DNA of 64,000 nt from Escherichia coli (GTDB lineage Bacteria; Pseudomonadota; Gammaproteobacteria; Enterobacterales; Enterobacteriaceae): NCBI RefSeq assembly GCF_003334355.1, contig NZ_QOWP01000020.1; one strand, written 5' to 3'. Made by a program: the position numbers and the translations under genes. How positions within the stretch are numbered: position 1 is the stretch's first letter; each line of letters begins with the position of its first letter. This document shows, piece by piece, positions 20,898 through 61,708 of this stretch. Under the pieces are notes generated by a model. The model was given only the letters and a program-made list of their open reading frames with translations, did not search any database and was not told the DNA's origin.

Positions 20898-20923
<26 letters not shown>
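20195..20923 (+). CDS. mpaA: murein peptide amidase A (gamma-D-Glu-mDAP amidase)
   Basis: ORF 20135..20923; likely start ATG at 20195 (MTVTRPRAERG...), 242 aa; M14 carboxypeptidase-like. Confidence 0.9.
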
Positions 20924-21905
<982 letters not shown>

Positions 21906-26831: not shown

Positions 26832-27830
26832 ATGTCCCCTACTATTTATGATATTGCCAGGGTTGCAGGCGTATCAAAATCCACCGTATCACGCGTGCTG
26901 AATAAGCAAACTAATATCTCCCCGGAAGCGCGCGAAAAAGTGTTACGGGCCATTGAAGAATTACAGTATCAGCCAAACAAGCTGGCCCGCGCACTGACCT
27001 CTTCGGGTTTTGATGCCATTATGGTGATTTCTACCCGTTCGACCAAAACTACGGCGGGTAATCCGTTTTTCTCTGAAGTTTTGCATGCCATCACCGCCAA
27101 AGCTGAAGAAGAAGGTTTCGACGTGATATTACAAACGTCGCACAATCCGGCAGAAGATCTGCAAAAATGCGAAAGCAAAATTAAGCAGAAAATGATTAAA
27201 GGCATTATTATGCTCAGTTCGCCAGCGGATGAGTCATTTTTTGCCCAACTCGATAAATATGATATTCCGGTGGTGGTGATTGGCAAAGTTGAAGGTCAAT
27301 ATGCCCATGTTTATTCTGTCGATACCGATAATTTTGGCGACAGCATTGCGTTGACCGATGCATTAATTGAAAGTGGGCATCAAAATATTGCCTGCCTGCA
27401 TGCTCCGCTTGATGTCCATGTTTCGGTTGATCGCGTTAATGGTTATAAGCAGAGCCTGGCTGCGCATAATATTGCAGTGCGTGATGAATGGATTGTTGAT
27501 GGCGGTTATACCCATGAAATTGCATTAAAAGCAGCACGGCAATTATTAAGCCAGTCACCGTTGCCTGAGGCGGTGTTTGCCACTGACAGCCTGAAATTAA
27601 TGAGCATTTATCGTGCGGCAGCAGAGAAAAATATTGCTATTCCGCAGCAGTTAGCGGTGGTGGGTTATAGCAATGAAACGCTGTCATTTATTTTAACGCC
27701 TGCACCGGGCGGCATCGATGTTCCGACGCAGGAGTTAGGTCAACAAAGCTGCGAGTTATTATTCAGCTTAATTTCTGGAAAACCGTCACCACAGAATATT
27801 ACCGTTGCCACGCATATGACGCTGAAATAA
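26832..27830 (+). CDS. ycjW: LacI-family transcriptional repressor YcjW
   Basis: 332-aa ORF; N-terminal HTH ([20 protein letters not shown]) plus periplasmic-binding-protein-like sugar domain. Confidence 0.9.
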
Positions 27831-40578: not shown

Positions 40579-40748
40579 GTTGCCTTTCCGTGGTAGCGGT
40601 CCCATGAAACGAGAGACTACTCCGCAGAAAATAAACTGTCAATTGAGCACAAGGGTTTTAGTCACGCAGGAAATCATTTTTTACCAGGGAAAAAGCGTAT
40701 TTGTGAGCTGACGCAAATAATCTATGGGGATGTAAATAAGGTGTGACA

Positions 40749-40778
40749 GAAAAAAAAACGGCGCATAAGCGCCGCTCA
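40749..40778 (-). terminator. intrinsic terminator of the psp operon (after pspE)
   Basis: On the minus strand, hairpin agcggcgcttatgcgccgt followed by a U9 tract. Confidence 0.8.
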
Positions 40779-40790
40779 TGGTGAATTCTT

Positions 40791-41105
40791 TTAACCTTTG
40801 ACCTTCGGCATTGCGATGTCTTTCAGGCCACCGGCGTTCTCAACGTGGGTATATCCCATCTCGCTAAGGATCTCTTTTGCTTGCCCTGACTGGCGTCCGG
40901 CATTGCAATACACTTTCACGGTGTCGTTTTTATCCGGAACGGCGGTGGCAATGCGCTCTTTCACTTCCTTCAGGGGAATATTGATGGCCCCCTGAACGTG
41001 CTCTTGCTGATACTGCTCTGGAACACGAACATCGATCCAGTGTTCAGCGGCGAAAACGGGCAGTGAAAACACCAGTGCCAGAGCAAGTAAGCCTTTTTTA
41101 AACAT
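40791..41105 (-). CDS. pspE: periplasmic rhodanese PspE
   Basis: 104-aa ORF with signal peptide and rhodanese active-site Cys (YCNAGRQS). Confidence 0.94.
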   Translation of the reverse strand: MFKKGLLALALVFSLPVFAAEHWIDVRVPEQYQQEHVQGAINIPLKEVKERIATAVPDKNDTVKVYCNAGRQSGQAKEILSEMGYTHVENAGGLKDIAMPKVKG

Positions 41106-41179
41106 GTAAGCGTCCTTCTATGGATGAAAATTGCCATCCATTATACGCCTGAGATTTAACAATTTTTGCGAAACTCCCC

Positions 41180-41401
41180 TCACCTTTTATAACGCTGTGC
41201 CAGTTTATTAGTAGCCCGACTTAACAGCGGTTCCAGCGCCACAGCCAGCAACATTTTCAGCGGTCGGCGAGCAACTGATTTTATCGCCCAGCCCGCCACA
41301 CCCGCCGGGCCATAGCGCAGTGCGGTAAGAAGTACCAGCTTGCCTGCTAATTTGAAACCAGGCTTTACCTTTTGCCCGGCCTGTTGCCAGCGAGTATTCA
41401 T
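41180..41401 (-). CDS. pspD: phage shock protein D
   Basis: ORF 41180..41413; likely start at 41401 ([10 protein letters not shown]...), 73 aa. Confidence 0.9.
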
Positions 41402-41409
41402 AACTTTCC

Positions 41410-41769
41410 TCACAGTTGACGGAAACGGCTACGTAACGTGAAAGTATCGGAAGTGACATAACGTTCCATCTCGCGTAAACGCGTTTCACTTGCCGCCAGT
41501 TCACGGTCGACTTCATCCAGCAATTCGCTGCTGGAAGGTAGCTGCTCACCAAAGGCCATGTTGTCCGGCATTGGATCAAGCGCAAATGACAAAATGATGT
41601 AAGCAACCAGGGTAAACAGCGCCAGACCGAAGAAAATCGACAGCACCACCAGGATACGCACCAGTTTTACCGGTACATCAAAATAGTTGGCAATCCCGGC
41701 GCAGACGCCGCGGACCATGCCCTGCTGTGGAATACGCCATAATTTTTTATTGAGATTAATGCCCGCCAT
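41410..41769 (-). CDS. pspC: phage shock protein C
   Basis: 119-aa ORF with one transmembrane helix; PspC domain. Confidence 0.94.
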
Positions 41770-41993
41770 TAGCGATCCCTCCAGTTCGGATGTTCTGCAT
41801 CAAGAATAGATTCCAGCGCCTGAATACGTTCGCGCATCCGTTTTGCTTCATCAGCCAGTTGCGCTAATCGCTGCTGCTCACTTTGCGACAATTCACTGCG
41901 ACCAGAACGATTGCTGTAATGCAGCCATAACCAGATCGGTAAAACAAACAGCACAAAAATGGTTAACGGAATAGCCAGAAATAACGCGCTCAT
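41769..41993 (-). CDS. pspB: phage shock protein B
   Basis: 74-aa ORF with N-terminal transmembrane helix; overlaps the pspC start. Confidence 0.94.
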   Translation of the reverse strand: MSALFLAIPLTIFVLFVLPIWLWLHYSNRSGRSELSQSEQQRLAQLADEAKRMRERIQALESILDAEHPNWRDR

Positions 41994-42046
41994 AAGTACT
42001 CCTTAGACGATGAGCGGCGGCGCGTTCGGACGCCGCCTGGATGTTA

Positions 42047-42787
<741 letters not shown>

Positions 42788-42881
42788 TTATCTTTTTGAT
42801 TTATAAAGATCTGATTGAAGAATCAACAGCAACATGCCAGGATGAGTTAGCGAATTACACTAACAAGTGGCGAATTTCATC

Positions 42882-43859
42882 ATGGCAGAATACAAAGATA
42901 ATTTACTTGGTGAGGCGAACAGCTTTCTCGAAGTGCTGGAACAGGTTTCGCATCTCGCACCGCTGGACAAACCGGTGCTCATCATCGGCGAACGCGGCAC
43001 CGGTAAAGAGCTGATTGCCAGCCGCCTGCATTATCTCTCCTCCCGTTGGCAAGGGCCGTTTATTTCCCTTAACTGCGCGGCGTTAAATGAAAATCTGCTG
43101 GATTCCGAACTGTTTGGTCACGAAGCGGGGGCGTTTACCGGTGCGCAAAAACGTCATCCAGGGAGATTTGAACGTGCCGACGGCGGTACGCTATTTCTTG
43201 ATGAACTCGCTACGGCACCGATGATGGTGCAGGAGAAATTATTGCGCGTGATTGAGTACGGTGAACTGGAGCGCGTTGGCGGCAGCCAGCCATTGCAGGT
43301 GAATGTGCGGTTGGTATGCGCGACGAATGCCGATCTCCCGGCGATGGTCAATGAAGGCACTTTTCGCGCTGACCTGCTCGACCGACTGGCTTTTGATGTT
43401 GTACAACTGCCACCACTGCGCGAGCGCGAAAGCGACATAATGTTGATGGCAGAACACTTTGCCATCCAGATGTGTCGGGAAATCAAGCTGCCTCTGTTCC
43501 CGGGGTTTACGGAGCGCGCCAGAGAAACATTGCTGAATTATCGTTGGCCGGGAAATATTCGTGAATTGAAAAACGTGGTGGAACGTTCAGTGTATCGCCA
43601 CGGCACCAGCGATTATCCGCTTGATGACATCATTATTGATCCCTTTAAACGGCGTCCGCCTGAAGACGCTATCGCCGTTTCAGAAACCACCTCGCTTCCA
43701 ACACTGCCGCTGGATTTACGTGAGTTTCAGATGCAGCAGGAAAAAGAGTTGCTGCAACTCAGTTTGCAACAAGGGAAATATAACCAGAAGCGCGCGGCTG
43801 AATTACTGGGGTTAACTTATCATCAGTTCCGCGCGTTGTTGAAAAAGCACCAGATTTAG
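42882..43859 (+). CDS. pspF: sigma-54 activator PspF
   Basis: ORF 42867..43859; likely start at 42882 (MAEYKDNLLGE...), 325 aa; AAA+ with GAFTGA motif and C-terminal HTH. Confidence 0.95.
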   Translation: MAEYKDNLLGEANSFLEVLEQVSHLAPLDKPVLIIGERGTGKELIASRLHYLSSRWQGPFISLNCAALNENLLDSELFGHEAGAFTGAQKRHPGRFERADGGTLFLDELATAPMMVQEKLLRVIEYGELERVGGSQPLQVNVRLVCATNADLPAMVNEGTFRADLLDRLAFDVVQLPPLRERESDIMLMAEHFAIQMCREIKLPLFPGFTERARETLLNYRWPGNIRELKNVVERSVYRHGTSDYPLDDIIIDPFKRRPPEDAIAVSETTSLPTLPLDLREFQMQQEKELLQLSLQQGKYNQKRAAELLGLTYHQFRALLKKHQI

Positions 43860-43880
43860 CGAAGTTGAGCAATACAACTT

Positions 43881-43958
43881 GCCGGATGCGGCGTGAATGC
43901 TTTATTCGGCATACATAATCAATACGTCGTTTGCAGGCCTGATAAGCGCAGCGCATCA
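43881..43958. repeat. REP-like palindromic units (pspF-puuE spacer)
   Basis: gccggatgcggcgtgaatgctttattcggc and aggcctgataagcgcagcgcatca. Confidence 0.6.
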
Positions 43959-43978
43959 TACATTATTGCGTTGGGCTA

Positions 43979-45244
43979 TTAATCGCTCAGCGCATCCTGC
44001 AAAATTTTCATTGCCGCATCGAATTGCGCATCCGGGATGGTCAGCGGATACAGGAAGCGAATCACGTTGCCGTATGCGCCACAGGTCAGCAGGAGCAGCC
44101 CCTGCGCCAGCGCGCGTTGCTGGATTTTCTGTGCAATCGCCGCTGACGGCTCGCCCGTTTGCGGATCGTTAAACTCTACCGCAATCATCGACCCCAGGCC
44201 GCGTACCGCAGCAATGGCCGGAACGCTTTCTTTGGCATCAATCAACGTGTTTTTGAGACGCTGGCCCAGTTGATTCGCGCGTTCGCAGAGTGATTCTTTG
44301 TCGATAATATTGAGCACCGCGTGCGCGGCAGCCACCGCCAGCGGGTTACCGGCGTAGGTGCCGCCAAGCCCGCCCGGCGCGGGTGCGTCCATAATATTCG
44401 CGTTACCGACCACGCCCGAAAGCGGCATCCCGCCCGCGAGGCTTTTCGCCATCGTCATTAAATCCGGCTTATCGGCGTAATGATCCATGGCAAACAGCTT
44501 ACCGGTACGCGCAAAGCCGCTTTGCACTTCATCAGCAATCATCACAATACCGTGCTCGTCGCACAGGCGGCGAATAGCGGCAACCAGCTCTTTTGGCGCA
44601 ACGTTGAAACCGCCCTCGCCCTGCACCGGTTCGAAAATAATCGCCGCCACCTGCTTCGCTTCGATGTCTGATTTAAACAAGCGTTCGATGGCGTCGAGGG
44701 AGTCCTGTGTTGAAATGCCGTGTAAATCTGACGGATAAGGTACGTGATACACCGAACCAGGGAACGGGCCGAAGCCGATTTTGTACGGCGCAACTTTTCC
44801 GGTCAGCGCCATGGTCATATACGTACGACCGTGAAAGCCGCCGCTAAACGCAATCACGCCAGGGCGTCCGGTATGGGCGCGAGCAATTTTCACCGCGTTT
44901 TCCACCGCTTCCGCACCGGTGGTGAAGAACGCGGTTTTGGCCTGCCCGCTCACCGGGGCAAGGGCGTTGATTTTCTCCGCCAGGGTGACGTAGCTTTCAT
45001 ACGGCACAATCTGATACGCGGTGTGGGTAAACTGTTGCAGTTGCTGCTCCACCGCCGCGACCAGATCAGGGTGGCGATGTCCGGTATTCAGCACCGCAAT
45101 GCCTGCGGCGAAATCGATGTACTCGTTGCCCTCAACATCCTTCAGCGTGGCGTTTTCAGCCGACTGGGCGAAGAAGTTACACATCACGCCAACCCCGCGC
45201 GGAGTGGCAGAAAGACGACGCTGATGGAATTCATTGTTGCTCAT
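43979..45244 (-). CDS. puuE: 4-aminobutyrate aminotransferase PuuE
   Basis: 421-aa class-III PLP aminotransferase. Confidence 0.94.
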   Translation of the reverse strand: MSNNEFHQRRLSATPRGVGVMCNFFAQSAENATLKDVEGNEYIDFAAGIAVLNTGHRHPDLVAAVEQQLQQFTHTAYQIVPYESYVTLAEKINALAPVSGQAKTAFFTTGAEAVENAVKIARAHTGRPGVIAFSGGFHGRTYMTMALTGKVAPYKIGFGPFPGSVYHVPYPSDLHGISTQDSLDAIERLFKSDIEAKQVAAIIFEPVQGEGGFNVAPKELVAAIRRLCDEHGIVMIADEVQSGFARTGKLFAMDHYADKPDLMTMAKSLAGGMPLSGVVGNANIMDAPAPGGLGGTYAGNPLAVAAAHAVLNIIDKESLCERANQLGQRLKNTLIDAKESVPAIAAVRGLGSMIAVEFNDPQTGEPSAAIAQKIQQRALAQGLLLLTCGAYGNVIRFLYPLTIPDAQFDAAMKILQDALSD

Positions 45245-45281
45245 GTTTCACACCTTTTGACTCTTCACGGTTAATCGGAAA

Positions 45282-46562
45282 TTAAACGCCCAGACGATCG
45301 CGCAGGCTGTAATACGCCGCGCCCATCGCGGTAAACGGCACACGCAGCGTGCGCCCGCCGGGGAACGGGTAATGCGGCAGATTGGCGAAGGCATCGAAAC
45401 GTTCGGCGTCGCCGCGCAGCAGTTCGGCAATCAAACGTCCGGCTAGATGAGTACAGGTCACGCCGTGGCCGCTGTAGCCCTGCATGTAATAGATGTTGGT
45501 ATCGAGGCGACCAAACTGCGGCATACGCGACAGGGTCAGCAGGAAGTTGCCCGTCCAGCGGTAATCAATTTTCACGCCCTTCAGCTGCGGGAAGGTTTTC
45601 AGCAGTTTCGGCACCACAAGGCGCTCAACGTCATCCGGGTCGCGCGCGCCGTAGACCACGCCGCCGCCGTACAGCAGGCGGTTGTCGGCGGTAAGACGGT
45701 AGTAATCAAGCAGATAGTTACAGTCTTCCACACAGTAGTTTTTCGGGATCAGCGAACGGGCTAAATCTTCCGACAGCCGTTCGGTGGTGATCACCTGCGT
45801 GCCGCACGGCATGCTGCGTTTCGCCAGTTCCGGCTCTACTTTATCGCCCAGATACGCATTCCCGGCGACAATCACATACTTCGCCGTCACCTGACCTTTG
45901 GCAGTTCGCACAACGGCTGGCGTGGTGTGCTGGATCTGCGTCACGGCAGAAAGTTCATACACGCGCCCGCCGTTGAGGCGGATGGCGTCCGCTTCGCCAA
46001 TGGCGAGGTTTAGCGGATGAATATGCCCACCGCTGTGATCCAGCAGCGCACCAGTGTAGCGATCGCTGGCGACCTCGCGGCGAATAGCGTTGGCGTCCAG
46101 CAGCTCCAGCTGATTATTGCCGTAGCGTTCCCAGTTCTCTTTCTGCTCTTCGAGTGTGGCGAGTTGTTTATCATTCATCGCCACAAACAGACCGCCGGGA
46201 CGATAGTCGCAGTCAATCTGATAACGTTTGATACGTTCGCGGATGATCTCGCCACCCTCGAACATCATGCTGCCGAGCATACGGGCGGTGTCCATGCCGT
46301 AGTTTTTTTCGATCACGTCGATGTCGCGGCTGTAGGAGTTCACAAGCTGCCCGCCATTGCGTCCGCTTGCGCCGAAGCCGATGCGTGAGGCTTCAAGAAC
46401 CACCACGTCAAAGCCCGCTTCCGCCAGATGCAGCGCGGAAGAGAGCCCGGTATAGCCGCCGCCGACCACGCAAACGTCGCAGGAAATCGACTCATTCAGC
46501 GTGTCGAATGGCGCGTATTTATTCGCACTGGCGGCGTAGTAACTGCTGGTATGTTCGGTCAT
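45282..46562 (-). CDS. puuB: gamma-glutamylputrescine oxidase PuuB
   Basis: 426-aa ORF with FAD-binding GxGxxG (VVGGGYTG). Confidence 0.94.
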   Translation of the reverse strand: MTEHTSSYYAASANKYAPFDTLNESISCDVCVVGGGYTGLSSALHLAEAGFDVVVLEASRIGFGASGRNGGQLVNSYSRDIDVIEKNYGMDTARMLGSMMFEGGEIIRERIKRYQIDCDYRPGGLFVAMNDKQLATLEEQKENWERYGNNQLELLDANAIRREVASDRYTGALLDHSGGHIHPLNLAIGEADAIRLNGGRVYELSAVTQIQHTTPAVVRTAKGQVTAKYVIVAGNAYLGDKVEPELAKRSMPCGTQVITTERLSEDLARSLIPKNYCVEDCNYLLDYYRLTADNRLLYGGGVVYGARDPDDVERLVVPKLLKTFPQLKGVKIDYRWTGNFLLTLSRMPQFGRLDTNIYYMQGYSGHGVTCTHLAGRLIAELLRGDAERFDAFANLPHYPFPGGRTLRVPFTAMGAAYYSLRDRLGV

Positions 46563-46563
46563 T

Positions 46564-48051
46564 TCAGGCCTCCAGGCTTATCCAGATGGTTTTCAGTTCG
46601 GTGAATTTTTCAAGGGCATGCAGGGATTTGTCGCGACCGTTGCCGCTCTGCTTATAGCCGCCAAACGGCACGGTCATATCGCCGTCGTTGTAGTTATTGA
46701 CGAAGACGGAACCAGCCTTCAGGCGGCGGCTCATGCGGTGCGCGCGGGAGAGGTCGCGCGTCCATACCGCCGCGCCAAGGCCGTACTGGCTGTCGTTGGC
46801 AAGCTGTAGCGCCTGTTCTTCTGATGTGAAACGCGTGACCACCAGCACCGGACCGAAAATCTCTTCGCGGCTTAAGGACGCATTCGGGTCTACATCCACA
46901 AAGATGGTCGGGCCGATGGCGGCAGCCAGCTCAGCGTTACGACCATCCAGCAGCAGTTGCCCTTTGCTTTCGCCTTCCCGAATAAAGCTATGGACCGAGT
47001 CGGCGTGGGCGCAGTCGATTAAGGTGCCCATGGTGGTTGCGGGATCAAGTGGATGGCCCGGCTGCCAGTTTTGCGCCTACTGTTTTAACAGGGCTAAGAA
47101 TTCATCGGCGATGCTCTCTTCCAGCAACAAACGCGTTCCGGCGATGCACACCTGGCCCTGGTTGTAGAAGATGCCTGCGGCGGTGGCGCTTGCCGCTTTT
47201 TACAGATCCGGACAATCGGCGAAAACGAGGTTGGCGCTTTTGCCGCCCGCTTCCAGCCAGACGCGTTTCATGTTGCTGTCGCCCGCATCTTTCAGCAGCT
47301 GTTTCCCGGTACGGGTTGAACCGGTAAAGGCAATGGCGTCGATATCGTTATGACGCGACAGCGCCTGCCCCGCTTCATGACCAAAACCCGTCACCACGTT
47401 CAACACACCATCCGGCAAGCCTGCTTCTTTCGCCAGCCCCGCGAGACGAATCGCACTGAGCGGTGATTTTTCAGACGGTTTTAGAATCACGCTGTTTCCC
47501 GCCGCCAGCGCCGGGCCGAGTTTCCAGCAAGTCAGCAACAGCGGGAAGTTCCACGGCACGATGGCGGCAATCACGCCGACCGGTTCACGCACGATCATCG
47601 CCAGCTCATGGCTACTGGTGGTCGCCACTTCGCCATACACTTTGTCGATCGCTTCGGCGTACCAGCGAATGGCGCGCGCCGCGCCGGGAATATCATCACG
47701 CAGACTGTGACGAATCGGTTTGCCGGTGTCGAGAGTTTCCAGCAGTGCCAGCTCTTCGGCGTGGGCTTCCATTAAATCGGCGAGTTTATTCAGTACCGCT
47801 TTACGTTTAGCCGGAGAAGAGAGTGACCAGTCGCCGCGTTCAAATACGCCGCGTGCTGCGCTCACCGCACGGTCGATATCGACGCTCTTGCCGCGGGCAA
47901 TTTTCGCCAGCGGTGCCTGGGTGACCGGATCAACGGTTTCAAAGGTTTCATTTTCCGCCGCAGCAGTATATTCACCGTTAATAAATAAGCGGTTTTCAAT
48001 GGCGAGACTTAACGCTTTATCCTGCCAGTAAGCCAGATGATGAAAATTCAT
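46564..48051 (-). pseudogene. puuC: gamma-glutamyl-gamma-aminobutyraldehyde dehydrogenase PuuC with two in-frame stop codons
   Basis: Aldehyde-dehydrogenase reading frame runs from the ATG at 48051 to 46564 in a single frame but contains TAA (47200-47202) after ...FADCPDL and TAG (47077-47079) after ...LALLKQ. Sequence between and after the stops remains ALDH-like (KAASATAAGIFYNQGQVCIAGTR...; AQNWQPGHPLDPATTMGTL...). Confidence 0.8.
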
Positions 48052-48325
48052 TATGACTCCTGTTTCACGTCTATCAGATATATGCAGTTTGTGAACGTCA
48101 GGGCGCAGAGATCCCCGGGCCGTATGCCCGTTTATTTCTGGCGACATTCTTTATATACACTTCATCCTTCAAGCCGCCTCTGCCTTGGCTGCGTTCGCTC
48201 CCCCGAATCACTTACCTGAGTAAGCTCATCGGGATTCGCTCACTTGCCGCCTTGATGCAACTTGAATGATTTTGTGTATAGATTGCCGGGCGCATTGCGC
48301 TTACCCGGCTTACAGAACAAAAAGA

Positions 48326-48883
48326 TTAAAACGTGGTGGGCGTATGGGCGCTGATAATTCGGCAAATACCTGCCGACGTATTACTGAAACTGTGCGGGAT
48401 GCCGGTATTAATGGCATAACTTTGCCCCGCGACGAGGTGGTAATCCTGACCATTAATCGTCAGAACAATTTCACCTTCCAGTACTGTGCCTATTTCCTCA
48501 CCCTGATGCTTAATTCTTTCCCCAGTGGTTGTGCCCGGCTGGTACGTTTCAAAGATCATCGCCAGCGTGCGATTCGGGTTACCGTTATGAACCAGCTTCA
48601 TTGACACACCCTGACTGCCCATCTCAATTAAGTCGTCCTGATTAATGACGACCTGCGGCTCATCAGGTTTTTCCGGCTCGGAAAAGAATTCCGAGAGTGA
48701 CAGACCATACACCTTCAGCAGCTTTTGCAGCGTACTGATGGCAGGGCTGACTTTATCTTGTTCTATCGTACTGATAGCACTGTGAGTCAGCCCGGAGAGT
48801 TCGGCGGCACGACGTTGTGAAAGCCCCTGCTGCTGGCGGATTTCCGACAAGCGTTTTCCTGGCGCCAGTCCCTCATCACTCAT
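48326..48883 (-). CDS. puuR: HTH-type repressor PuuR (XRE HTH plus cupin)
   Basis: 185-aa ORF; N-terminal HTH (LSQRRAAELSGLTHSAISTIE) and C-terminal cupin. Confidence 0.94.
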   Translation of the reverse strand: MSDEGLAPGKRLSEIRQQQGLSQRRAAELSGLTHSAISTIEQDKVSPAISTLQKLLKVYGLSLSEFFSEPEKPDEPQVVINQDDLIEMGSQGVSMKLVHNGNPNRTLAMIFETYQPGTTTGERIKHQGEEIGTVLEGEIVLTINGQDYHLVAGQSYAINTGIPHSFSNTSAGICRIISAHTPTTF

Positions 48884-48909
48884 ATTTGCATTTCCTTAAA
48901 CTGTAGTGG

Positions 48910-49674
48910 TCAGAGTCGCTGTTTTTCAGCGATATGGTGCTGACAAGCGGTGATAAAGCCCTCGAACAATATACGCGAAAGCGCGTACTCGCTACTGTTC
49001 CATTCCGGGTGCCACTGTACGCCCAGCGCAAAAGGATGATTGATGACGCTAACCGCCTCAACTAAGCCATCCGGCGAGCGAGCTTCAACACGCAACCGTG
49101 GGCTAACGACCTTCGCCCCTTGTCCATGCAGAGAGTTTACCCAAAAGTTGCTACATTCAGGTAACAACGCAGACAGTAATCCCCCCTCTTCAACCTGAAC
49201 TTCATGCGACGGTGCATATTGCTGTTCCACCGGCAGTTCGGGATCTTCCCGATGTTCCAGCAATTCAGGCTGTTCGCACAGCTTGCGATGCAACGAACCA
49301 CCGGTTGCCACCACCAGTTCCTGTAAACCCCGGCAGATGGCGAAAATGGGGATGCGCCTTTCGAGTGCGGCATTAATTAACGCCATGCTCAGAAGATCAC
49401 GCCCGGGATCGGCGTCAGGCTCATCGCCGTTTTCACCATATAGGTGCGGCTGCACATTGCTGGGACTACCAGGAAGATAAATGCCATCGAGTTTCGGCAA
49501 AAGTTGTTCAAGTAATGACGGTTCCGCCAGCGCATGTGGTAACGCAATTGGCAAGCCGCCTGCGTGGATGATGGCATTCAGGTACTTTTCTTGCAGAGTC
49601 TGGGTCGCATGACCCTTAAGCCTGTTCCTGCACATTACGACACCGATAACCGGATTGTTCATTATATTTTCCAT
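48910..49674 (-). CDS. puuD: gamma-glutamyl-GABA hydrolase PuuD
   Basis: ORF 48910..49686; likely start at 49674 (MENIMNNPVIGVV...), 254 aa; class-I glutamine amidotransferase-like. Confidence 0.93.
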   Translation of the reverse strand: MENIMNNPVIGVVMCRNRLKGHATQTLQEKYLNAIIHAGGLPIALPHALAEPSLLEQLLPKLDGIYLPGSPSNVQPHLYGENGDEPDADPGRDLLSMALINAALERRIPIFAICRGLQELVVATGGSLHRKLCEQPELLEHREDPELPVEQQYAPSHEVQVEEGGLLSALLPECSNFWVNSLHGQGAKVVSPRLRVEARSPDGLVEAVSVINHPFALGVQWHPEWNSSEYALSRILFEGFITACQHHIAEKQRL

Positions 49675-49885
49675 GCTCAATCTCACAAAGTGGACTAAAT
49701 TATCGCCATTACTGCGCTTTAAATGACCTTTATGTTCAATATTTTTTCAATCTAGCAGTGGGTTTTCATTTTTGCAAACTCAATTTAACATTTGACAAAC
49801 ATTTAGTTTGCATACAGATTCGAATGGTGGTCATTATATTTTACGCTTTGATAACGAGCGGAAAACAAACCAAAGGCGAAGAATC

Positions 49886-51303
49886 ATGGAAACCAATATC
49901 GTTGAAGTAGAGAACTTTGTTCAGCAGTCAGAAGAGAGGCGGGGTAGCGCCTTTACGCAGGAAGTGAAACGCTACCTGGAGCGCTACCCGAATACGCAAT
50001 ATGTTGATGTTTTACTTACCGATTTAAATGGTTGCTTCCGTGGAAAGCGTATTCCTGTTTCAAGCCTGAAGAAGCTCGAGAAAGGGTGTTATTCCCGGCC
50101 TCGGTATTTGCAATGGATATTCTGGGCAACGTAGTAGAAGAAGCAGGTCTGGGTCAGGAAATGGGCGAGCCGGATCGTACCTGTGTTCCTGTTCTCGGTT
50201 CCTTAACTCCTTCTGCCGCCGATCCAGAGTTTATCGGTCAGATGCTCCTGACCATGGTCGATGAAGATGGCGCTCCCTTTGACGTTGAGCCGCGGAACGT
50301 TCTTAACCGCCTGTGGCAGCAGCTGCGCCAGCGCGGATTGTTCCCGGTCGTAGCGGTAGAGCTGGAGTTCTATTTACTGGATCGCCAGCGCGACGCTGAA
50401 GGGTATCTGCAACCGCCCTGCGCGCCTGGCACCGATGACCGCAATACACAAAGCCAGGTTTACTCCGTTGATAACCTCAACCACTTCGCCGACGTGCTCA
50501 ATGATATTGATGAACTGGCGCAGTTACAGCTGATTCCGGCAGATGGCGCGGTCGCTGAGGCCTCGCCGGGTCAGTTTGAAATCAACCTTTACCATACTGA
50601 TAACGTGCTGGAAGCCTGCGATGATGCGCTGGCACTAAAACGCCTGGTGCGTCTGATGGCAGAAAAGCATAAGATGCACGCCACTTTTATGGCGAAGCCG
50701 TATGAAGAGCACGCGGGCAGCGGAATGCATATCCATATCAGTATGCAAAATAATCGTGGCGAGAACGTGCTTTCTGACGCGGAAGGCGAAGATTCGCCGC
50801 TGCTGAAAAAGATGCTCGCCGGGATGATTGACCTGATGCCGTCGTCGATGGCGTTGCTGGCACCAAACGTGAACTCGTATCGCCGCTTCCAGCCGGGAAT
50901 GTATGTGCCGACGCAGGCGTCGTGGGGCCATAACAACCGCACCGTCGCCCTGCGTATTCCGTGCGGCGACCGTCATAATCACCGCGTGGAATATCGCGTG
51001 GCGGGTGCCGATGCCAACCCATATCTGGTGATGGCAGCGATTTTTGCCGGTATTTTGCATGGCCTTGATAACGAGCTGCCGTTGCAGGAAGAAGTCGAAG
51101 GCAACGGGCTGGAACAGGAAGGCTTACCCTTTCCGATTCGCCAGAGCGATGCCCTGGGTGAGTTTATCGAGAATGATCACCTGCGCCGCTATTTAGGCGA
51201 ACGCTTCTGCCATGTCTATCACGCCTGTAAAAATGATGAGCTGTTGCAGTTTGAGCGCCTCATCACAGAAACAGAAATTGAGTGGATGTTGAAAAACGCG
51301 TAA
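49886..51303 (+). pseudogene. puuA: glutamate-putrescine ligase PuuA disrupted by a 1-bp deletion
   Basis: N-terminus METNIVEVENF...LEKGCY is in one frame and stops at 50132-50134. The glutamine-synthetase-like remainder (FPASVFAMDILGN... to MLKNA) is in the -1 frame (ORF 50032..51303). The junction is at tgttat-t-cccggcc (about 50090-50094), where one T appears to be missing. Confidence 0.8.
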
Positions 51304-51605
51304 TACCCCTTGCGGGGTTGTTTCATCGGCCTGAGCGGAGCCAGGACTGACATTTGCTGGTAATCCAGACATTTCCCGGATGTCGCGTTATGGAGCGCGG
51401 GCGGCAACGGGCTTCCGTTAACGATTAAGACTGTGACGAGGAAATGAGATGATGCCGATGATTAAATCCCCGCATGGCGAGGGAGGCTGCGTATGCGCCC
51501 CTCCTGCTACTGACTGGACTCCGCCCCCTTTGCTTCCCTTGCTAAACAGGTTTGATTTCAGGTCGACACGACCGCAAACCTTATTACGCAGGGGAGGCAG
51601 CAATT

Positions 51606-52991
51606 ATGGCTATTAATTCACCACTGAATATTGCTGCGCAACCCGGCAAAACCCGTCTGCGAAAATCACTGAAATTGTGGCAGGTGGTGATGATGGGTCT
51701 GGCCTATCTCACGCCGATGACCGTATTTGATACTTTTGGTATTGTCTCCGGCATTAGCGACGGTCACGTTCCGGCGTCCTATTTGCTGGCGCTGGCGGGT
51801 GTGCTGTTTACCGCTATCAGCTACGGCAAACTGGTTCGCCAGTTTCCGGAGGCCGGTTCGGCCTATACCTACGCGCAAAAGTCGATTAACCCGCACGTCG
51901 GATTTATGGTCGGCTGGTCATCGCTGCTGGATTATCTCTTTTTGCCGATGATTAACGTCTTGTTGGCGAAAATCTATCTCTCCGCCCTCTTCCCGGAAGT
52001 GCCGCCGTGGGTGTGGGTGGTAACCTTCGTCGCCATTTTAACCGCCGCGAATCTGAAGAGCGTCAACCTGGTCGCTAACTTCAATACCCTGTTTGTACTG
52101 GTGCAAATCTCCATCATGGTGGTGTTTATCTTCCTGGTAGTTCAGGGACTGCATAAAGGAGAAGGCGTTGGCACCGTCTGGTCACTTCAGCCGTTTATCA
52201 GCGAGAACGCGCACCTGATCCCGATTATTACCGGGGCGACGATTGTCTGTTTCTCCTTCCTCGGTTTCGATGCGGTGACCACGCTTTCGGAAGAGACGCC
52301 GGACGCCGCACGCGTGATCCCGAAAGCCATCTTCCTGACGGCGGTCTACGGTGGCGTTATCTTTATCGCGGCGTCGTTCTTTATGCAGCTGTTCTTTCCC
52401 GATATCAGCCGCTTTAAAGATCCGGATGCCGCACTGCCTGAAATTGCGCTGTACGTCGGCGGCAAGCTCTTCCAGTCGATTTTCCTCTGCACCACGTTTG
52501 TGAACACGTTAGCCTCTGGCCTGGCTTCACATGCCAGCGTGTCGCGTCTGCTGTATGTGATGGGGCGTGACAATGTGTTTCCGGAGCGCGTGTTTGGCTA
52601 TGTGCACCCAAAATGGCGGACTCCGGCACTCAACGTCATTATGGTCGGGATTGTCGCGTTGTCGGCGCTGTTCTTCGATTTAGTTACCGCCACAGCGTTA
52701 ATTAACTTCGGTGCTCTGGTGGCGTTTACCTTCGTGAATCTGTCGGTGTTTAATCATTTCTGGCGGCGTAAAGGAATGAATAAAAGCTGGAAGGATCACT
52801 TCCACTATTTGCTGATGCCGCTGGTTGGCGCGCTGACGGTGGGTGTGCTGTGGGTTAACCTCGAGTCAACGTCACTGACACTCGGTCTGGTATGGGCTTC
52901 GTTAGGCGGCGCATATTTATGGTATCTGATCCGCCGCTATCGCAAAGTGCCGTTGTATGATGGTGACAGAACGCCGGTGAGTGAAACGTAA
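51606..52991 (+). CDS. puuP: putrescine importer PuuP (APC family)
   Basis: ORF 51552..52991; start ATG at 51606 after gggagg RBS ([12 protein letters not shown]...); 12-TM amino-acid/polyamine permease. Confidence 0.94.
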
Positions 52992-53124
52992 TAGTCGGAT
53001 GCGCGGCGCATTATCCTGCCTGAGGGTAACGCGCCGCGCCATTAACTATAAAAAGATGTATGACCCGGATCACGAGTGCTATCATCCGCCCTTATGCTTA
53101 GCGCATTAACCCCAGGGGCAAATA

Positions 53125-53370
53125 ATGAACCACGATATCCCGCTAAAATATTTTGATATTGCCGATGAGTACGCGACCGAATGCGCAGAGCCTGTCGCAG
53201 AGGCTGAACGCACACCGCTGGCCCACTACTTCCAGTTACTGCTCACCCGTTTGATGAACAATGAAGAGATCAGCGAAGAAGCCCAACATGAAATGGCTGC
53301 TGAAGCGGGGATTAATCCCGTACGCATTGATGAGATCGCAGAGTTTTTGAATCAATGGGGTAATGAGTAA
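53125..53370 (+). CDS. ymjA: small acidic protein YmjA (DUF2543)
   Basis: 81-aa ORF; matches YmjA. Confidence 0.85.
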
Positions 53371-53682
53371 TGATTTAATTGCAGACGATCGGTCAGTATC
53401 GTTGTCCGGATAAAGCGTTCACGCCGCATCTGGCTAACAATGACACGCACTGCAGCGTGCTTTAATGGGTTTCTCACGATCGTACCGCTCTGCTCCTCGC
53501 TAAGTTGTTCTGTGAGTTATAGTTATAGAGAAATCACGGGTACGAATGTTGAACAGATGGCGACGTCACCTGTTCAACGACCAACCACACGGCCCTCATT
53601 ACGACCCCTGAACACAAACGGTAATGGCAAATGTCATTAAATATTAGTAAGATAGCCTCTTTACATAAAATCCCTTAATATT

Positions 53683-55326
53683 ATGCGCCAGGTATTATCG
53701 TCTCTTTTGGTGATTGCTGGACTTGTGAGTGGTCAGGCAATCGCCGCGCCTGAATCTCCCCCGCATGCTGATATCCGCGACAGCGGTTTTGTCTATTGCG
53801 TCAGCGGGCAAGTCAACACCTTTAACCCATCCAAAGCGAGCAGTGGGTTAATTGTCGATACCCTTGCCGCCCAGTTTTATGATCGACTGCTGGATGTCGA
53901 TCCCTATACCTATCGCCTGATGCCGGAACTTGCCGAAAGCTGGGAAGTACTCGACAACGGCGCGACCTATCGCTTCCACCTGCGTCGCGATGTTCCGTTT
54001 CAAAAAACCGACTGGTTTACTCCCACTCGTAAAATGAATGCCGACGATGTGGTGTTTACCTTCCAGCGAATTTTTGACCGCAACAACCCGTGGCATAACG
54101 TCAACGGCAGCAACTTCCCCTACTTCGACAGCCTGCAATTTGCCGATAACGTGAAAAGCGTCCGCAAACTGGATAATCATACCGTTGAGTTCCGACTCGC
54201 CCAGCCGGATGCTTCTTTTTTGTGGCACCTCGCAACCCATTATGCTTCGGTCATGTCGGCAGAATATGCCCGGAAGTTAGAGAAAGAAGATCGCCAGGAG
54301 CAACTCGACCGTCAACCGGTCGGCACCGGTCCGTATCAGTTGTCGGAATACCGCGCCGGGCAATTTATTCGCCTACAACGTCATGATGACTTCTGGCGCG
54401 GTAAACCGTTAATGCCGCAGGTAGTGGTGGATTTAGGCTCCGGCGGCACCGGACGTCTGTCGAAACTCCTGACCGGGGAATGTGACGTTCTGGCCTGGCC
54501 TGCTGCCAGCCAGCTATCCATTTTGCGTGACGACCCGCGCTTGCGTTTAACGCTGCGTCCTGGGATGAACGTCGCCTATCTGGCATTTAACACCGCCAAA
54601 CCGCCGCTAAATAATCCCGCTGTCCGCCATGCACTGGCACTGGCGATTAATAACCAGCGCCTGATGCAATCCATCTATTATGGTACGGCTGAAACGGCGG
54701 CCTCTATTTTACCGCGCGCCTCGTGGGCCTATGACAACGAGGCTAAAATTACTGAATACAATCCGGCGAAATCGCGCGAACAGTTGAAGGCGTTGGGGCT
54801 GGAAAACTTAACGCTGAAACTGTGGGTGCCCACACGTTCGCAGGCGTGGAACCCCAGTCCACTGAAAACTGCCGAACTGATTCAGGCGGATATGGCGCAG
54901 GTTGGCGTAAAAGTGGTGATTGTGCCGGTAGAAGGTCGCTTTCAGGAGGCGCGGTTGATGGATATGAGCCATGATCTGACGTTATCCGGTTGGGCGACGG
55001 ACAGTAACGACCCGGACAGTTTCTTCCGTCCTTTACTGAGCTGCGCGGCAATTCATTCACAGACCAACCTCGCCCACTGGTGCGATCCGAAATTCGACAG
55101 CGTGTTGCGTAAGGCGCTCTCCTCGCAGCAGCTGGCGGCGCGTATTGAAGCCTATGACGAAGCGCAGAGTATTCTGGCGCAGGAATTGCCCATTTTGCCG
55201 CTGGCGTCGTCATTGCGTTTGCAGGCCTATCGGTACGATATCAAAGGTCTGGTACTTAGCCCGTTTGGTAACGCCTCCTTTGCTGGGGTGTATCGCGAGA
55301 AACAGGATGAGGTGAAAAAACCATGA
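53683..55326 (+). CDS. sapA: periplasmic binding protein SapA
   Basis: 547-aa ORF with signal peptide; SBP family 5. Confidence 0.94.
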
Positions 55327-56288
55327 TTATCTTCACCTTACGCCGCATTTTGTTATTGATTGTCACCTTGTTCCTGCTGACCTTCGTTGGCTTCAGCTTG
55401 AGCTATTTCACCCCTCATGCGCCGTTACAAGGCGCGTCACTGTGGAATGCCTGGGTGTTCTGGTTTAACGGCCTGATCCACTGGGATTTTGGTGTTTCCA
55501 GCATTAACGGTCAACCGATTGCCGAACAGTTAAAAGAGGTCTTCCCGGCGACGATGGAACTGTGCATCCTCGCCTTCGGTTTTGCGCTGATTGTTGGCAT
55601 CCCCGTGGGGATGATTGCCGGGATTACGCGCCATAAGTGGCAGGATAACTTGATCAACGCCATCGCCTTACTGGGCTTTTCAATCCCGGTGTTCTGGCTG
55701 GCGCTTCTGTTGACGCTGTTTTGTTCACTCACGCTAGGTTGGTTGCCCGTTTCAGGGCGTTTCGATCTGCTCTACGAAGTGAAACCGATTACCGGTTTTG
55801 CGTTGATTGATGCCTGGCTTTCGGACTCACCATGGCGGGATGAAATGATCATGAGCGCAATCCGCCATATGATATTGCCCGTGATCACCCTGTCGGTTGC
55901 GCCAACAACTGAAGTGATCCGCCTGATGCGTATCAGCACTATCGAAGTGTATGACCAGAACTATGTAAAAGCGGCGGCGACCCGCGGTTTGTCGCGCTTT
56001 ACTATTTTGCGTCGCCACGTTCTGCATAACGCGTTACCGCCGGTTATTCCTCGCCTGGGCTTACAGTTTTCCACCATGCTGACGCTGGCGATGATCACCG
56101 AAATGGTTTTTAGCTGGCCGGGTTTAGGGCGCTGGTTAATTAACGCCATCCGCCAGCAGGATTACGCAGCCATTTCCGCCGGAGTGATGGTGTGTGGCTC
56201 ACTGGTCATTATTGTTAACGTGATTTCTGATATTTTGGGTGCCATGGCTAACCCTCTGAAACATAAGGAATGGTATGCCTTACGATAG
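55323..56288 (+). CDS. sapB: ABC permease SapB
   Basis: 321-aa permease; overlaps the sapA stop. Confidence 0.94.
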
Positions 56289-57165
56289 CGTATACAGCGA
56301 AAAGCGCCCGCCGGGCACGCTGCGTACCGCCTGGCGCAAATTTTATAGTGACGCCTCTGCGATGGTCGGCCTGTACGGCTGCGCGGGGCTGGCTGTACTG
56401 TGTATTTTTGGCGGCTGGTTTGCGCCTTACGGCATCGACCAGCAATTTCTCGGTTATCAATTATTGCCGCCGTCATGGTCGCGCTATGGCGAAGTTTCTT
56501 TCTTCCTGGGGACTGACGACCTCGGACGCGATGTTTTAAGCCGTTTACTGAGCGGAGCTGCGCCAACCGTGGGTGGCGCATTTGTGGTGACGCTTGCCGC
56601 GACGATCTGTGGCCTGGTACTGGGCACCTTCGCCGGGGCGACACACGGCCTCCGCTCAGCGGTGCTTAACCATATTCTGGATACCTTACTGGCGATCCCT
56701 TCGCTGCTGTTGGCAATTATCGTTGTAGCGTTTGCCGGACCGAGTTTGTCCCACGCTATGTTTGCTGTCTGGCTGGCATTGCTGCCGCGTATGGTACGTT
56801 CGATTTACAGCATGGTGCATGACGAACTGGAAAAAGAGTACGTTATCGCCGCCCGTCTGGATGGCGCATCAACGCTGAATATTCTCTGGTTTGCTGTGAT
56901 GCCAAACATCACCGCCGGGCTGGTCACCGAGATCACCCGCGCACTGTCGATGGCAATTCTCGATATCGCCGCGCTGGGCTTTCTCGATCTCGGCGCACAA
57001 CTCCCCTCGCCTGAATGGGGAGCGATGCTCGGTGATGCGCTGGAACTGATTTATGTCGCCCCGTGGACTGTCATGCTGCCAGGTGCGGCAATTATGATTA
57101 GCGTGTTGTTGGTTAACCTCCTTGGCGATGGCGTTCGTCGTGCGATTATTGCGGGGGTGGAATAA
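56275..57165 (+). CDS. sapC: ABC permease SapC
   Basis: 296-aa permease. Confidence 0.94.
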
Positions 57166-58157
57166 TGCCATTACTCGATATTCGTAACCTGACCATTGAA
57201 TTTAAAACCGGTGATGAGTGGGTTAAAGCCGTCGACCGGGTAAGTATGACCTTAACCGAAGGTGAAATCCGCGGTCTTGTTGGTGAATCCGGTTCCGGCA
57301 AGAGTTTGATTGCGAAAGCGATTTGTGGGGTGAATAAAGATAACTGGCGTGTTACTGCTGACCGTATGCGTTTTGATGATATCGATTTGCTGCGTCTCTC
57401 CGCACGCGAACGGCGCAAACTGGTTGGCCATAACGTGTCGATGATTTTCCAGGAACCGCAGTCGTGTCTTGACCCTTCAGAACGTGTGGGTCGCCAGTTG
57501 ATGCAAAACATCCCAGCCTGGACCTATAAAGGCCGTTGGTGGCAGCGTTTTGGCTGGCGCAAACGCCGTGCCATTGAACTGCTGCACCGCGTGGGGATTA
57601 AAGATCACAAAGATGCGATGCGCAGTTTTCCCTATGAGTTGACCGAAGGTGAATGTCAGAAAGTGATGATAGCCATTGCACTGGCGAATCAACCGCGTCT
57701 GCTGATTGCTGACGAACCGACCAACTCAATGGAGCCAACAACCCAGGCGCAAATCTTTCGCCTGCTGACGCGTCTCAACCAAAACAGCAATACCACTATT
57801 TTGCTTATCAGCCATGACTTACAAATGCTTAGCCAATGGGCGGATAAAATTAACGTGCTTTACTGCGGTCAAACAGTGGAAACCGCGCCGAGTAAGGAGT
57901 TGGTGACGATGCCACATCATCCTTATACCCAGGCGCTGATCCGCGCGATACCAGACTTCGGCAGCGCGATGCCGCATAAAAGTCGCCTCAATACGCTACC
58001 CGGCGCTATCCCACTGCTGGAACAGTTACCGATTGGTTGTCGTCTGGGGCCACGTTGCCCGTATGCACAACGAGAATGCATTGTGACGCCACGTTTGACG
58101 GGGGCGAAAAATCATCTCTATGCCTGTCATTTCCCGCTGAACATGGAGAAAGAGTGA
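57165..58157 (+). CDS. sapD: ABC ATPase SapD
   Basis: 330-aa ORF with Walker A GESGSGKS. Confidence 0.94.
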
Positions 58158-58158
58158 G

Positions 58159-58965
58159 ATGATCGAAACGCTGCTTGAAGTGCGTAATTTAAGTAAAACG
58201 TTCCGCTACCGGACCGGCTGGTTTCGTCGTCAGACCGTAGAAGCGGTAAAACCCTTGAGCTTTACGCTACGTGAAGGCCAGACACTGGCGATTATTGGCG
58301 AGAATGGTTCGGGTAAATCCACGCTGGCAAAAATGCTGGCGGGAATGATAGAGCCTACCAGCGGCGAGTTATTGATTGACGATCATCCGCTGCATTTTGG
58401 CGATTATTCCTTCCGCAGTCAGCGTATTCGCATGATTTTTCAGGATCCTTCGACCTCGTTGAATCCCCGTCAACGTATCTCGCAAATTCTGGATTTTCCA
58501 TTGCGTCTGAACACCGACCTGGAACCGGAACAGCGTCGCAAACAGATTATTGAAACGATGCGTATGGTTGGGCTGCTACCGGATCACGTCAGTTACTATC
58601 CGCATATGTTGGCACCCGGGCAAAAACAGCGTCTGGGTCTGGCGCGCGCGCTGATATTGCGCCCAAAAGTCATTATTGCCGATGAAGCCCTCGCTTCACT
58701 GGATATGTCGATGCGTTCGCAGTTGATTAATCTGATGCTGGAATTACAGGAAAAACAGGGCATTTCGTATATTTATGTTACCCAGCATATCGGAATGATG
58801 AAGCACATTAGCGACCAGGTGCTGGTGATGCATCAGGGCGAGGTTGTCGAGCGAGGCAGCACCGCGGATGTGCTGGCATCGCCGCTGCATGAACTCACCA
58901 AACGGCTGATTGCCGGTCATTTTGGCGAGGCATTGACGGCGGATGCGTGGCGTAAAGATCGCTAA
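58159..58965 (+). CDS. sapF: ABC ATPase SapF
   Basis: 268-aa ORF with Walker A GENGSGKST. Confidence 0.94.
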   Translation: MIETLLEVRNLSKTFRYRTGWFRRQTVEAVKPLSFTLREGQTLAIIGENGSGKSTLAKMLAGMIEPTSGELLIDDHPLHFGDYSFRSQRIRMIFQDPSTSLNPRQRISQILDFPLRLNTDLEPEQRRKQIIETMRMVGLLPDHVSYYPHMLAPGQKQRLGLARALILRPKVIIADEALASLDMSMRSQLINLMLELQEKQGISYIYVTQHIGMMKHISDQVLVMHQGEVVERGSTADVLASPLHELTKRLIAGHFGEALTADAWRKDR

Positions 58966-59032
58966 TTTTCTGAATCCTCCTTCCAGATTATTCACCTCAT
59001 TCTGACAAAAGATTAAATCTTGTCAGAATGAG

Positions 59033-59479
59033 GTGATAGATAAAATTAAATCAAATGCGCGTGATTTAAGACGCAATCTCACTTTGCAGGAACGAAAGCT
59101 CTGGCGATATCTTCGCAGCCGACGTTTTAGTGATTTCAAATTTCGCCGTCAACATCCAGTGGGGAGCTACATTCTCGATTTTGCTTGCTGCTCGGCGCGT
59201 GTAGTCGTTGAGCTGGATGGTGGGCAGCATGATTTAGCAGTTGCCTATGATTCCAGGCGCACTAGCTGGCTTGAGTCGCAGGGCTGGACCGTGCTGCGTT
59301 TCTGGAATAACGAGATTGATTGTAATGAGGAGACGGTGCTGGAGAATATTCGGCAAGGTCTGAACCGTCCCAGCCATCGCCATGAAAGGGTTAGGGGCTG
59401 TATGAGCCTGTTTGTTGCTGGGGTAACAATATTTGCACAATACGGTCCCCTCGCCCCTCTGGGGAGAGGGTTAGGGTGA
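59033..59479 (+). CDS. ycjD: DUF559 endonuclease-like domain protein (YcjD-like)
   Basis: ORF with a Vsr/DUF559-like core (...VVELDGGQHD...). The 148-aa reading frame continues into the GC-rich repeat at 59440-59500, so the C-terminus is probably extended relative to K-12 YcjD (about 117 aa by my recollection). Confidence 0.7.
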   Translation: MIDKIKSNARDLRRNLTLQERKLWRYLRSRRFSDFKFRRQHPVGSYILDFACCSARVVVELDGGQHDLAVAYDSRRTSWLESQGWTVLRFWNNEIDCNEETVLENIRQGLNRPSHRHERVRGCMSLFVAGVTIFAQYGPLAPLGRGLG

Positions 59480-60483: not shown

Positions 60484-60580
60484 TGTTATACCTTTCTGAT
60501 ATTTGTTATCGCCGATCCGTCTTTCTCCCCTTCCCGCCTTGCGTCAGGATAACGATTTCCTTTACGACCAAGGAGCGCCC

Positions 60581-61708
60581 ATGGAACAACGCCACATCAC
60601 CGGCAAAAGCCACTGGTATCATGAAACGCAATCCAGTACTGCGGAGTATGACGTTCTGCCTCTGGTCCCGGAAGCCGCAAAGGTCAGCGATCCCTTTCTG
60701 CTCGACGTGATCCTTGATGAAGAAACGCTGGCTCCCTTCCTTTCATGGCTGGTCCCTGCGCGCGTTCTTGCAGTGGAATTGTTCCCTGACCAGCTTACCG
60801 TGACCCGTTCACAGACCTTCACCGCTTATGAACGCTTGTCTACGGCCCTGACGGTTGCTCAGGTTTGCGGCGTCCAGCGGTTATGTAACTACTATTCGGC
60901 GCGACTTACGCCGCTCCCCGGGCCTGATTCCTCCAGGGAAAGCAATCATAGGTTGGCACAAATCACGCAATATGCCCGCCAACTGGCTAGCTCGCCTTCT
61001 ATTATCGACAACCGATCGCGCCAGCATCTGAATGACGTCGGTCTTACTGCCTGGGACTGTGTGATCATTAACCAAATCATTGGTTTTATTGGCTTTCAGG
61101 CGCGGACCATTGCGACATTTCAGGCTTATCTCGGGCACCCGGTACGCTGGTTACCCGGTCTGGAAATACAAAACTACGCCGACGCGTCACTGTTTGCTGA
61201 TGAATCAATACGCTGGCGAAGCAGCTATGAGGTGGAAAAACTACCTGAAGAGTACACAAAAAGTTCAACTGCAGAACTTTGCCAACTGGCCGAAACACTC
61301 TCTCTCCACCCTATTTCACTTTCCCTTCTCGAAAGGTTGTTAAACAGTACACGGGTTAATACACAGCCGGATAATAAGCTTGCGGCGTTGTTATGCGCGC
61401 GGATAAATGGCAGTCCTGCTTGTTTTGCCGCCTGTATGGATTCATCAAATGAATATAAAAAAATCAGCGCTCTTGTGCGCAAGGGCGAAAATGAAATTAA
61501 CCAATGGGCTGACCGTCATTCTGTTGAGCACGCTACCGTTCAGGCGATACAATGGCTGACCCGAGCACCCGATCGCTTTAGCGCCGCCCAGTTCAGCCCT
61601 TTACTCGAACACGAAAAATCATCAACGCAGATTATTAATCTGCTGGTATGGAGCGGGCTGTGTGGCTGGATAAATCGCTTAAAAATCGCGTTGGGTGAGA
61701 CATATTAA
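60581..61708 (+). CDS. yciW: YciW (AhpD/CMD-like oxidoreductase family)
   Basis: ORF 60503..61708; likely start at 60581 (MEQRHITGK...) after aggagcg RBS; 375 aa. Confidence 0.88.

Follow-up and report, generated by a model that had tools for sequence, protein, structure and literature searches.

In the window (the whole stretch of 64,000 nucleotides of Escherichia coli DNA analyzed here), the gene for glutamate-putrescine ligase, puuA, raises the question of whether it has really been lost and, if so, how its loss relates to the other lesions of the putrescine catabolic cluster in which it lies. According to our analysis, puuA is very probably a pseudogene created by an inherited 1-nt deletion in a lineage carrying the puuC Q284* stop, in which relaxed selection was then followed by independent lesions.

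The puuA lesion and its consequence for the protein

From ttcA to rnb, the window is colinear with K-12. Within it, puuA occupies its position in the puuDRCBE/puuAP cluster, which is colinear with K-12 from pspE to ycjD; in both, pspF and puuE-B-C-R-D lie on one strand, and puuA, ymjE, puuP, and sapA lie on the other. The gene is an ortholog of the characterized K-12 PuuA (WP_001296746.1), the first enzyme of the Puu pathway, and 4,372 genomes match it at at least 95% identity with the annotation puuA. The K-12 gene has the same nucleotides except for one T, but in the window the frame is broken and the 472-aa protein is not encoded. The parts of the gene are as follows:

49886-51303, + strand: puuA pseudogene (glutamate-putrescine ligase), K-12 puuA minus one T and otherwise identical
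50092-50093, + strand: lesion site at codons Y69/F70, with TT in place of the TTT of all intact genes
49886-50134, + strand: 5' ORF fragment of 82 aa, consisting of 69 native PuuA residues and 13 out-of-frame residues before a TAG
50092-51303, + strand: 3' part of puuA in the -1 frame, F70-A472 and the stop, with the whole Gln-synt_C and the back half of the N-terminal domain

When read from the ATG at 49886, puuA encodes METN...LEKGCY, followed by the out-of-frame residues SRPRYLQWIFWAT and the TAG stop at 50132-50134. The frame shifts after codon 69 of the 472 codons, which leaves about 400 codons in the -1 frame; the uninterrupted ORF of a functional puuA is broken at codon 70, a disruption of the frame relative to the intact orthologs. 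The open frame at 50032-51303 reads ...FPASVFAMDILGN... and ends in the usual PuuA C-terminus (...EIEWMLKNA*), and the ORF list holds two pieces of puuA, 49808-50134 and 50032-51303.

The letters tgttattcccggcc are located at 50087-50100 of the window. The context of the lesion in K-12 is TGTTATTTCCCGG, and its TTT run is reduced to TT in the window. A base-by-base comparison gave GGGTGTTATTTCCCGG for K-12 MG1655 versus GGGTGTTATTCCCGG for the window, with 0 substitutions within puuA, and BLAST of positions 40700-59367 (18.7 kb) against MG1655 returned one alignment with 90 mismatches and a single 1-nt gap. The earlier note had proposed a 1-nt deletion in the T-run of puuA, with the downstream part in the -1 frame, and both frames and the MG1655 alignment agree with this proposal. 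The reading that it expected of an intact gene, tgttatttcccggcc, is present in the intact puuA genes of K-12 and of the complete genomes, and the nucleotide alignment to intact puuA that it recommended reveals the single missing T and nothing else in the gene.

When the frame is repaired, PuuA contains both the Gln-synt_C and the glutamine synthetase N-terminal domain: Pfam places Gln-synt_C (PF00120) at residues 134-467 (E=2.8e-106) and, as a weak match, Gln-synt_N_2 (PF16952) at residues 37-132 (E=0.0033). The repaired protein also matches PDB glutamine synthetases at 7e-41 over nearly its full length. Codon 70, where the frame breaks, lies inside the N-terminal domain, which is thereby split, and the catalytic domain is cut off from the native start. 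Possible restarts set by gene callers would yield C-terminal fragments of 396 or 405 residues, without the first half of the N-terminal domain. In glutamine synthetases, this domain contributes to the active site of the neighboring subunit; since half of it is missing, neither fragment is expected to be active.

With a frame shift after residue 69, an end 13 codons further on, and no Gln-synt_C reachable from the native start, no glutamate-putrescine ligase would be made, and the gamma-glutamylation route for putrescine catabolism would be closed. From the sequence, we infer the loss of the enzyme activity and of growth on putrescine in the strain, which is predicted to be without the gamma-glutamyl route of putrescine catabolism; the PatA/PatD transaminase route, encoded outside the window, may remain. 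PMC8674398 states, citing Kurihara 2008, that a K-12 puuA deletion mutant is unable to use putrescine as a nitrogen or carbon source; they also report increased extracellular putrescine in K-12 puuA deletion mutants and operon-like behavior of puuA and puuP (PMC8674398). Premature termination in puuA might reduce the expression of puuP by polarity.

Inherited deletion, sequencing error, and recoding

The missing T might stem from erroneous sequencing or assembly of a short homopolymer, with the gene intact in the organism. The change does lie within a homopolymer, and the deletion was absent from all 4,358 complete RefSeq E. coli genomes that matched a 91-base query over the site; all of them have TTT, and the best identity of the query was 98.9%, equal to one gap. 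Taken alone, this absence is compatible with a sequencing error. However, the run is merely 3 nt long, and the same allele occurs in NCBI assemblies that were deposited separately and in Logan assemblies from several sequencing runs. The exact 82-residue product was found on six contigs, including one from the NCBI assembly GCA_014464935.1 and a Logan contig (five samples, represented by ERR4578542). The exact puuA allele of the window is, in fact, already public, since its product stands at NCBI as RCQ21029.1, HAH2851699.1, and HAM4699843.1 under the name "hypothetical protein [Escherichia coli]." The GCA_014464935.1 contig shows 100% identity with the window across 6,249 nt, and the Logan contig carries the puuA deletion along with the window-specific SNPs at 51346 and 47079; the allele is always linked to these two private SNPs.

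The recurrence of the same 82-residue product and of identical DNA, with the linked private SNPs, in independent public assemblies argues decisively against a sequencing error, which we therefore rule out for practical purposes as highly improbable. Where the earlier note looked to resequencing for an extra T, the public assemblies keep the T missing together with the same lineage SNPs, in favor of a real mutation. The reproducibility of the deletion was judged on independent assemblies, which could all come from one clone, and the deletion is apparently a heritable marker of that small clone.

Even less credible is the synthesis of a full-length PuuA from the mutated gene by programmed -1 ribosomal frameshifting or transcriptional slippage. 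The 0 and -1 frames do overlap at 50032-50134, and a -1 shift anywhere in this zone would give a near-native protein. Yet the overlap contains neither an X XXY YYZ heptamer nor a homopolymer of at least 4 nt (none was found in 50030-50134, and the nearest run, TTTT at 50010, lies outside the overlap), which makes recoding very unlikely. A conserved two-frame arrangement was not found either: orthologs exist by the thousands in a single frame (at the site, 4,358 of the 4,358 matched complete genomes), whereas the allele arose recently and occurs in one clone only. On the grounds of the missing slippery site and the unconserved arrangement, we ruled out a programmed frameshift and retained an inherited deletion.

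Relatives of the window and the order of the lesions

The closest complete genome is that of E. coli PSS-12 (NZ_AP027697.1; human feces, Puyo, Ecuador), which is 99.95% identical to the window over 37.7 kb (17 mismatches and 2 single-base gaps); in the first 24 kb, 7 positions are mismatched. A literature search for the origin of the strain found the name PSS-12 in neither the text nor the supplements of a plausible source study. In the RefSeq annotation of PSS-12, puuC is a pseudogene ("internal stop"), puuD is "frameshifted," and puuA is intact. The two strains share the puuC Q284* stop; PSS-12 differs from the window in its intact puuA, the 1-nt deletion in puuD, the lack of Q325*, and an IS1203 copy in yciW. 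With ATCC 8739 (all puu genes intact) and MLI023K1 as outgroups for the derived state, the features and changes of the region are as follows:

43979-45244, - strand: puuE, intact
45282-46562, - strand: puuB, intact ORF with the lineage-specific K150N at 46113, derived in the window lineage only
46564-48051, - strand: puuC pseudogene (aldehyde dehydrogenase) with two nonsense codons
47200-47202, - strand: puuC Q284* (CAA>TAA), derived state common to the window, PSS-12, and other assemblies; the older lesion
47077-47079, - strand: puuC Q325*, derived in the window lineage only and co-inherited with the puuA deletion
48326-48883, - strand: puuR, repressor, intact
48910-49674, - strand: puuD, intact in the window and frameshifted in the sister strain PSS-12
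about 49181-49186: position of the 1-nt deletion in puuD, derived in the PSS-12 lineage only
50092-50093, + strand: 1-nt deletion in puuA, derived in the window lineage only
51606-52991, + strand: puuP, putrescine importer, intact ORF downstream of the broken puuA
about 60581-61708, within the compared stretch 60503-61708: yciW, without the IS1203 insertion that is found in the PSS-12 lineage only

The further claims of the earlier note about the cluster held as well. The puuC gene is also inactivated, by in-frame stops at codons 284 and 325, and puuD, puuR, puuB, puuE, and puuP are complete, full-length ORFs without stops; a comparison with MG1655 revealed no second indel in the puu cluster of the window.

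A look-up of the 283-residue PuuC fragment returned more assemblies of the PSS-12 type (puuD frameshifted, puuA intact), and the window type again. Because Q284* is common to the window and PSS-12, and the puuA and puuD lesions are each confined to one lineage, the most parsimonious order is likely one in which puuC was hit first and different second hits followed in two sister lineages. In a lineage near ATCC 8739 and PSS-12, the Puu pathway would thus have been hit first by puuC Q284*. With the puuC step gone, selection on the other puu genes would have been relaxed and independent further lesions could have accumulated: the puuA frameshift and the second puuC stop in the window lineage, and the puuD frameshift in the PSS-12 lineage. 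PuuC is a fairly unspecific aldehyde dehydrogenase; the pathway was therefore perhaps not fully dead after Q284*, which weakens the relaxed-selection step.

A strict dependence, in which puuA is lost only after puuC, was considered and rejected. A puuA frameshift allele of 155 residues, indexed in 42 blocks of the collection, is accompanied by intact puuC, puuD, puuR, and puuP; the order is therefore not obligatory, and puuA can be the first gene hit.

The Q284* change was also seen outside this group. In SRR13347155 (Logan), the CAA>TAA change at codon 284 of puuC lies on a puuD-puuA-puuP haplotype with about 100 differences from that of the window, and with intact puuA and puuD. This may reflect either recombination inside the cluster or a recurrence of the same nonsense mutation.

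Owing to the number of pseudogenes, a Shigella/EIEC origin of the window was suspected. It was rejected, as there is no IS in the window, the nearest complete relative is a human-fecal E. coli, and NCBI labels the exact 82-residue protein as E. coli.

Two insertion sequences distinguish the PSS-12 genome: IS1203 interrupts yciW, the gene for a CMD-domain protein that is intact in the window (in PSS-12, locus L005 37082-39522), and IS1A lies directly after rnb.

Selection and Puu loss in other lineages

Over 61 kb, the branch leading to the window has accumulated 11 derived mutations: 1 synonymous, 4 missense (ycjW T230I and R312S, pspD A64T, and puuB K150N), 2 nonsense (puuC Q325* and ycjG Q103*), 1 frameshift (puuA), and 3 intergenic. 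Judged by these counts, the mutation spectrum is that of a branch so young that purifying selection has yet to act on it. Changes are modestly enriched in the puu cluster, which makes up 14.7% of the sequence and contains 8 of the 26 lineage-specific mutations (P=0.029). Three of the five inactivating post-ancestral events fall in puu genes (P=0.019), or two of four when the already dead puuC is left out (P=0.06); the events behind these enrichment tests are very few, and the P values are marginal. The enrichment is compatible with relaxed constraint after the loss of puuC and would also allow for positive selection for loss.

Positive selection would make the puuA loss an adaptive second step after the loss of puuC, through one of two routes. 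If PuuA and PuuB still work in a puuC-null cell, ATP and glutamate would be consumed while gamma-glutamyl-gamma-aminobutyraldehyde and H2O2 accumulate, so that a block at the first step, stopping this futile and possibly toxic flux, would be beneficial; or Puu loss would raise putrescine and thereby improve biofilm formation, adhesion, or colonization. If true, the puu cluster would show how a pathway is naturally dismantled in commensal E. coli, in an ordered and selection-driven way. Such selection would agree with the clustering of inactivating hits in the puu genes of two sister lineages (P about 0.02-0.06), with the repeated independent disruption of puuA (the window, S. dysenteriae 1, the 155-aa allele, E412*, and W347*), and with the frequent or lineage-fixed loss of Puu genes and the gain of biofilm and adhesion upon puuC deletion (bioRxiv 10.1101/2024.06.03.596356). 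However, the hit in the sister lineage fell in puuD, downstream of puuC, where it would bring no relief from a toxic intermediate. Moreover, the same short branch carries an unrelated nonsense mutation in ycjG and four missense mutations versus one synonymous, that is, disruptive mutations have not been purged there, and the clone is small, with about six contigs found. Because the sister lineage was hit in puuD and puuA can be lost first, the data give no specific support to an adaptive loss of puuA in the puuC-null background. We therefore regard selection for the loss as unlikely and prefer decay under relaxed constraint.

Loss of the pathway is already known from other lineages. According to a preprint, many bacteria have lost Puu genes or carry them as pseudogenes, and this loss has become fixed in S. 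boydii CC145 and in S. sonnei CC152; the lineages with Puu-gene loss also include V. parahaemolyticus wave 4, puuA-D is absent from E. coli phylogroup B2, and the deletion of puuC in MG1655 leads to more biofilm and adhesion (bioRxiv 10.1101/2024.06.03.596356). In our search, a puuA match was missing from about 1,050 of 5,426 complete E. coli genomes, in line with the report that phylogroup B2 has no puuA-D. The window adds a predicted loss of the Puu route to those of these lineages (B2, S. boydii, S. sonnei, and V. parahaemolyticus), in which deletion or pseudogenization has repeatedly removed putrescine catabolism. Unlike them, the window has a physically complete cluster with point lesions only, in a clone that is small and recent.

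A close parallel to the lesion itself is the puuA of S. dysenteriae type 1 (for example, strain 1617, CP061527.1), where a frameshift in the same few codons leads to the same out-of-frame TAG and a product of 82 aa. That lesion is different and independent and lies 3-4 codons downstream; its product reads ...GCYFPARCLQW... versus ...GCYSRPRYLQW... in the window. The puuC of S. dysenteriae 1 is also split (328+155), and the decay has gone further than in the window, as puuP is cut by IS1. Some of the S. dysenteriae chromosomes CP061527.1, CP026777.1, and CP026878.1 also have a split in puuD or in the 3' part of puuA.

Other broken puuA alleles are not rare. The 90%-identity cluster of the 82-residue product has 387 members, many of which are truncated PuuA N-termini, and two further assemblies carry the independent nonsense mutations E412* and W347* in puuA. 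A 126-aa puuA allele was set aside, since different neighbor genes are broken in different samples and the data are thus probably noisy.

The gene, the pathway, the lesion type, and the recurrent loss of the pathway are all already known, and the puuA of the window is an ordinary pseudogene. It should be flagged as such in annotation, with little significance beyond this. It adds one more data point to the published repeated Puu loss in E. coli and Shigella, and the sister lineages offer a small, clean case of apparent stepwise decay: puuC, and then puuA in one and puuD in the other.

Several minor observations were made in the course of the analysis. The contigs of SRR7947391, SRR18965777, SRR9902641, and GCA_012714125.2 all end at codon 283/284 of puuC with an intact CAA, and two of these four bear puuA E412*/W347*. 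An IS insertion at this codon was considered for the four contig ends and could not be confirmed; many complete genomes have this haplotype in intact form.

Two genes outside the puu cluster stand out on the window branch. The L-Ala-D/L-Glu epimerase gene ycjG (20898-21863, - strand) carries the nonsense mutation Q103* (CAG>TAG) at 21555-21557, which is derived in the window lineage, is absent from PSS-12 and MLI023K1, and represents the third gene knockout among just 11 lineage-specific mutations. The LacI-type regulator gene ycjW (26832-27830) holds 2 of the 11 derived mutations, the lineage-specific missense changes T230I and R312S, at 27520 and 27765.

At the ycjD-fabI junction (59329-59367), the window and PSS-12 are without 106 bp that are found in K-12 and ATCC 8739. 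The junction of this deletion lies within a 39-nt repeated stretch, and the C-terminus of ycjD is exchanged, giving an ORF of 148 aa versus 117 aa in K-12 (incomplete in PSS-12 according to PGAP).

In the wastewater E. coli strains SW071611, SW071619, and SW07163, the puuA region exceeds the query by about 35 bp and its alignment falls into two parts, suggestive of a small duplication or insertion within puuA or close to it. Finally, the search of complete E. coli genomes included plasmid-borne matches, six for puuA and six for puuC.
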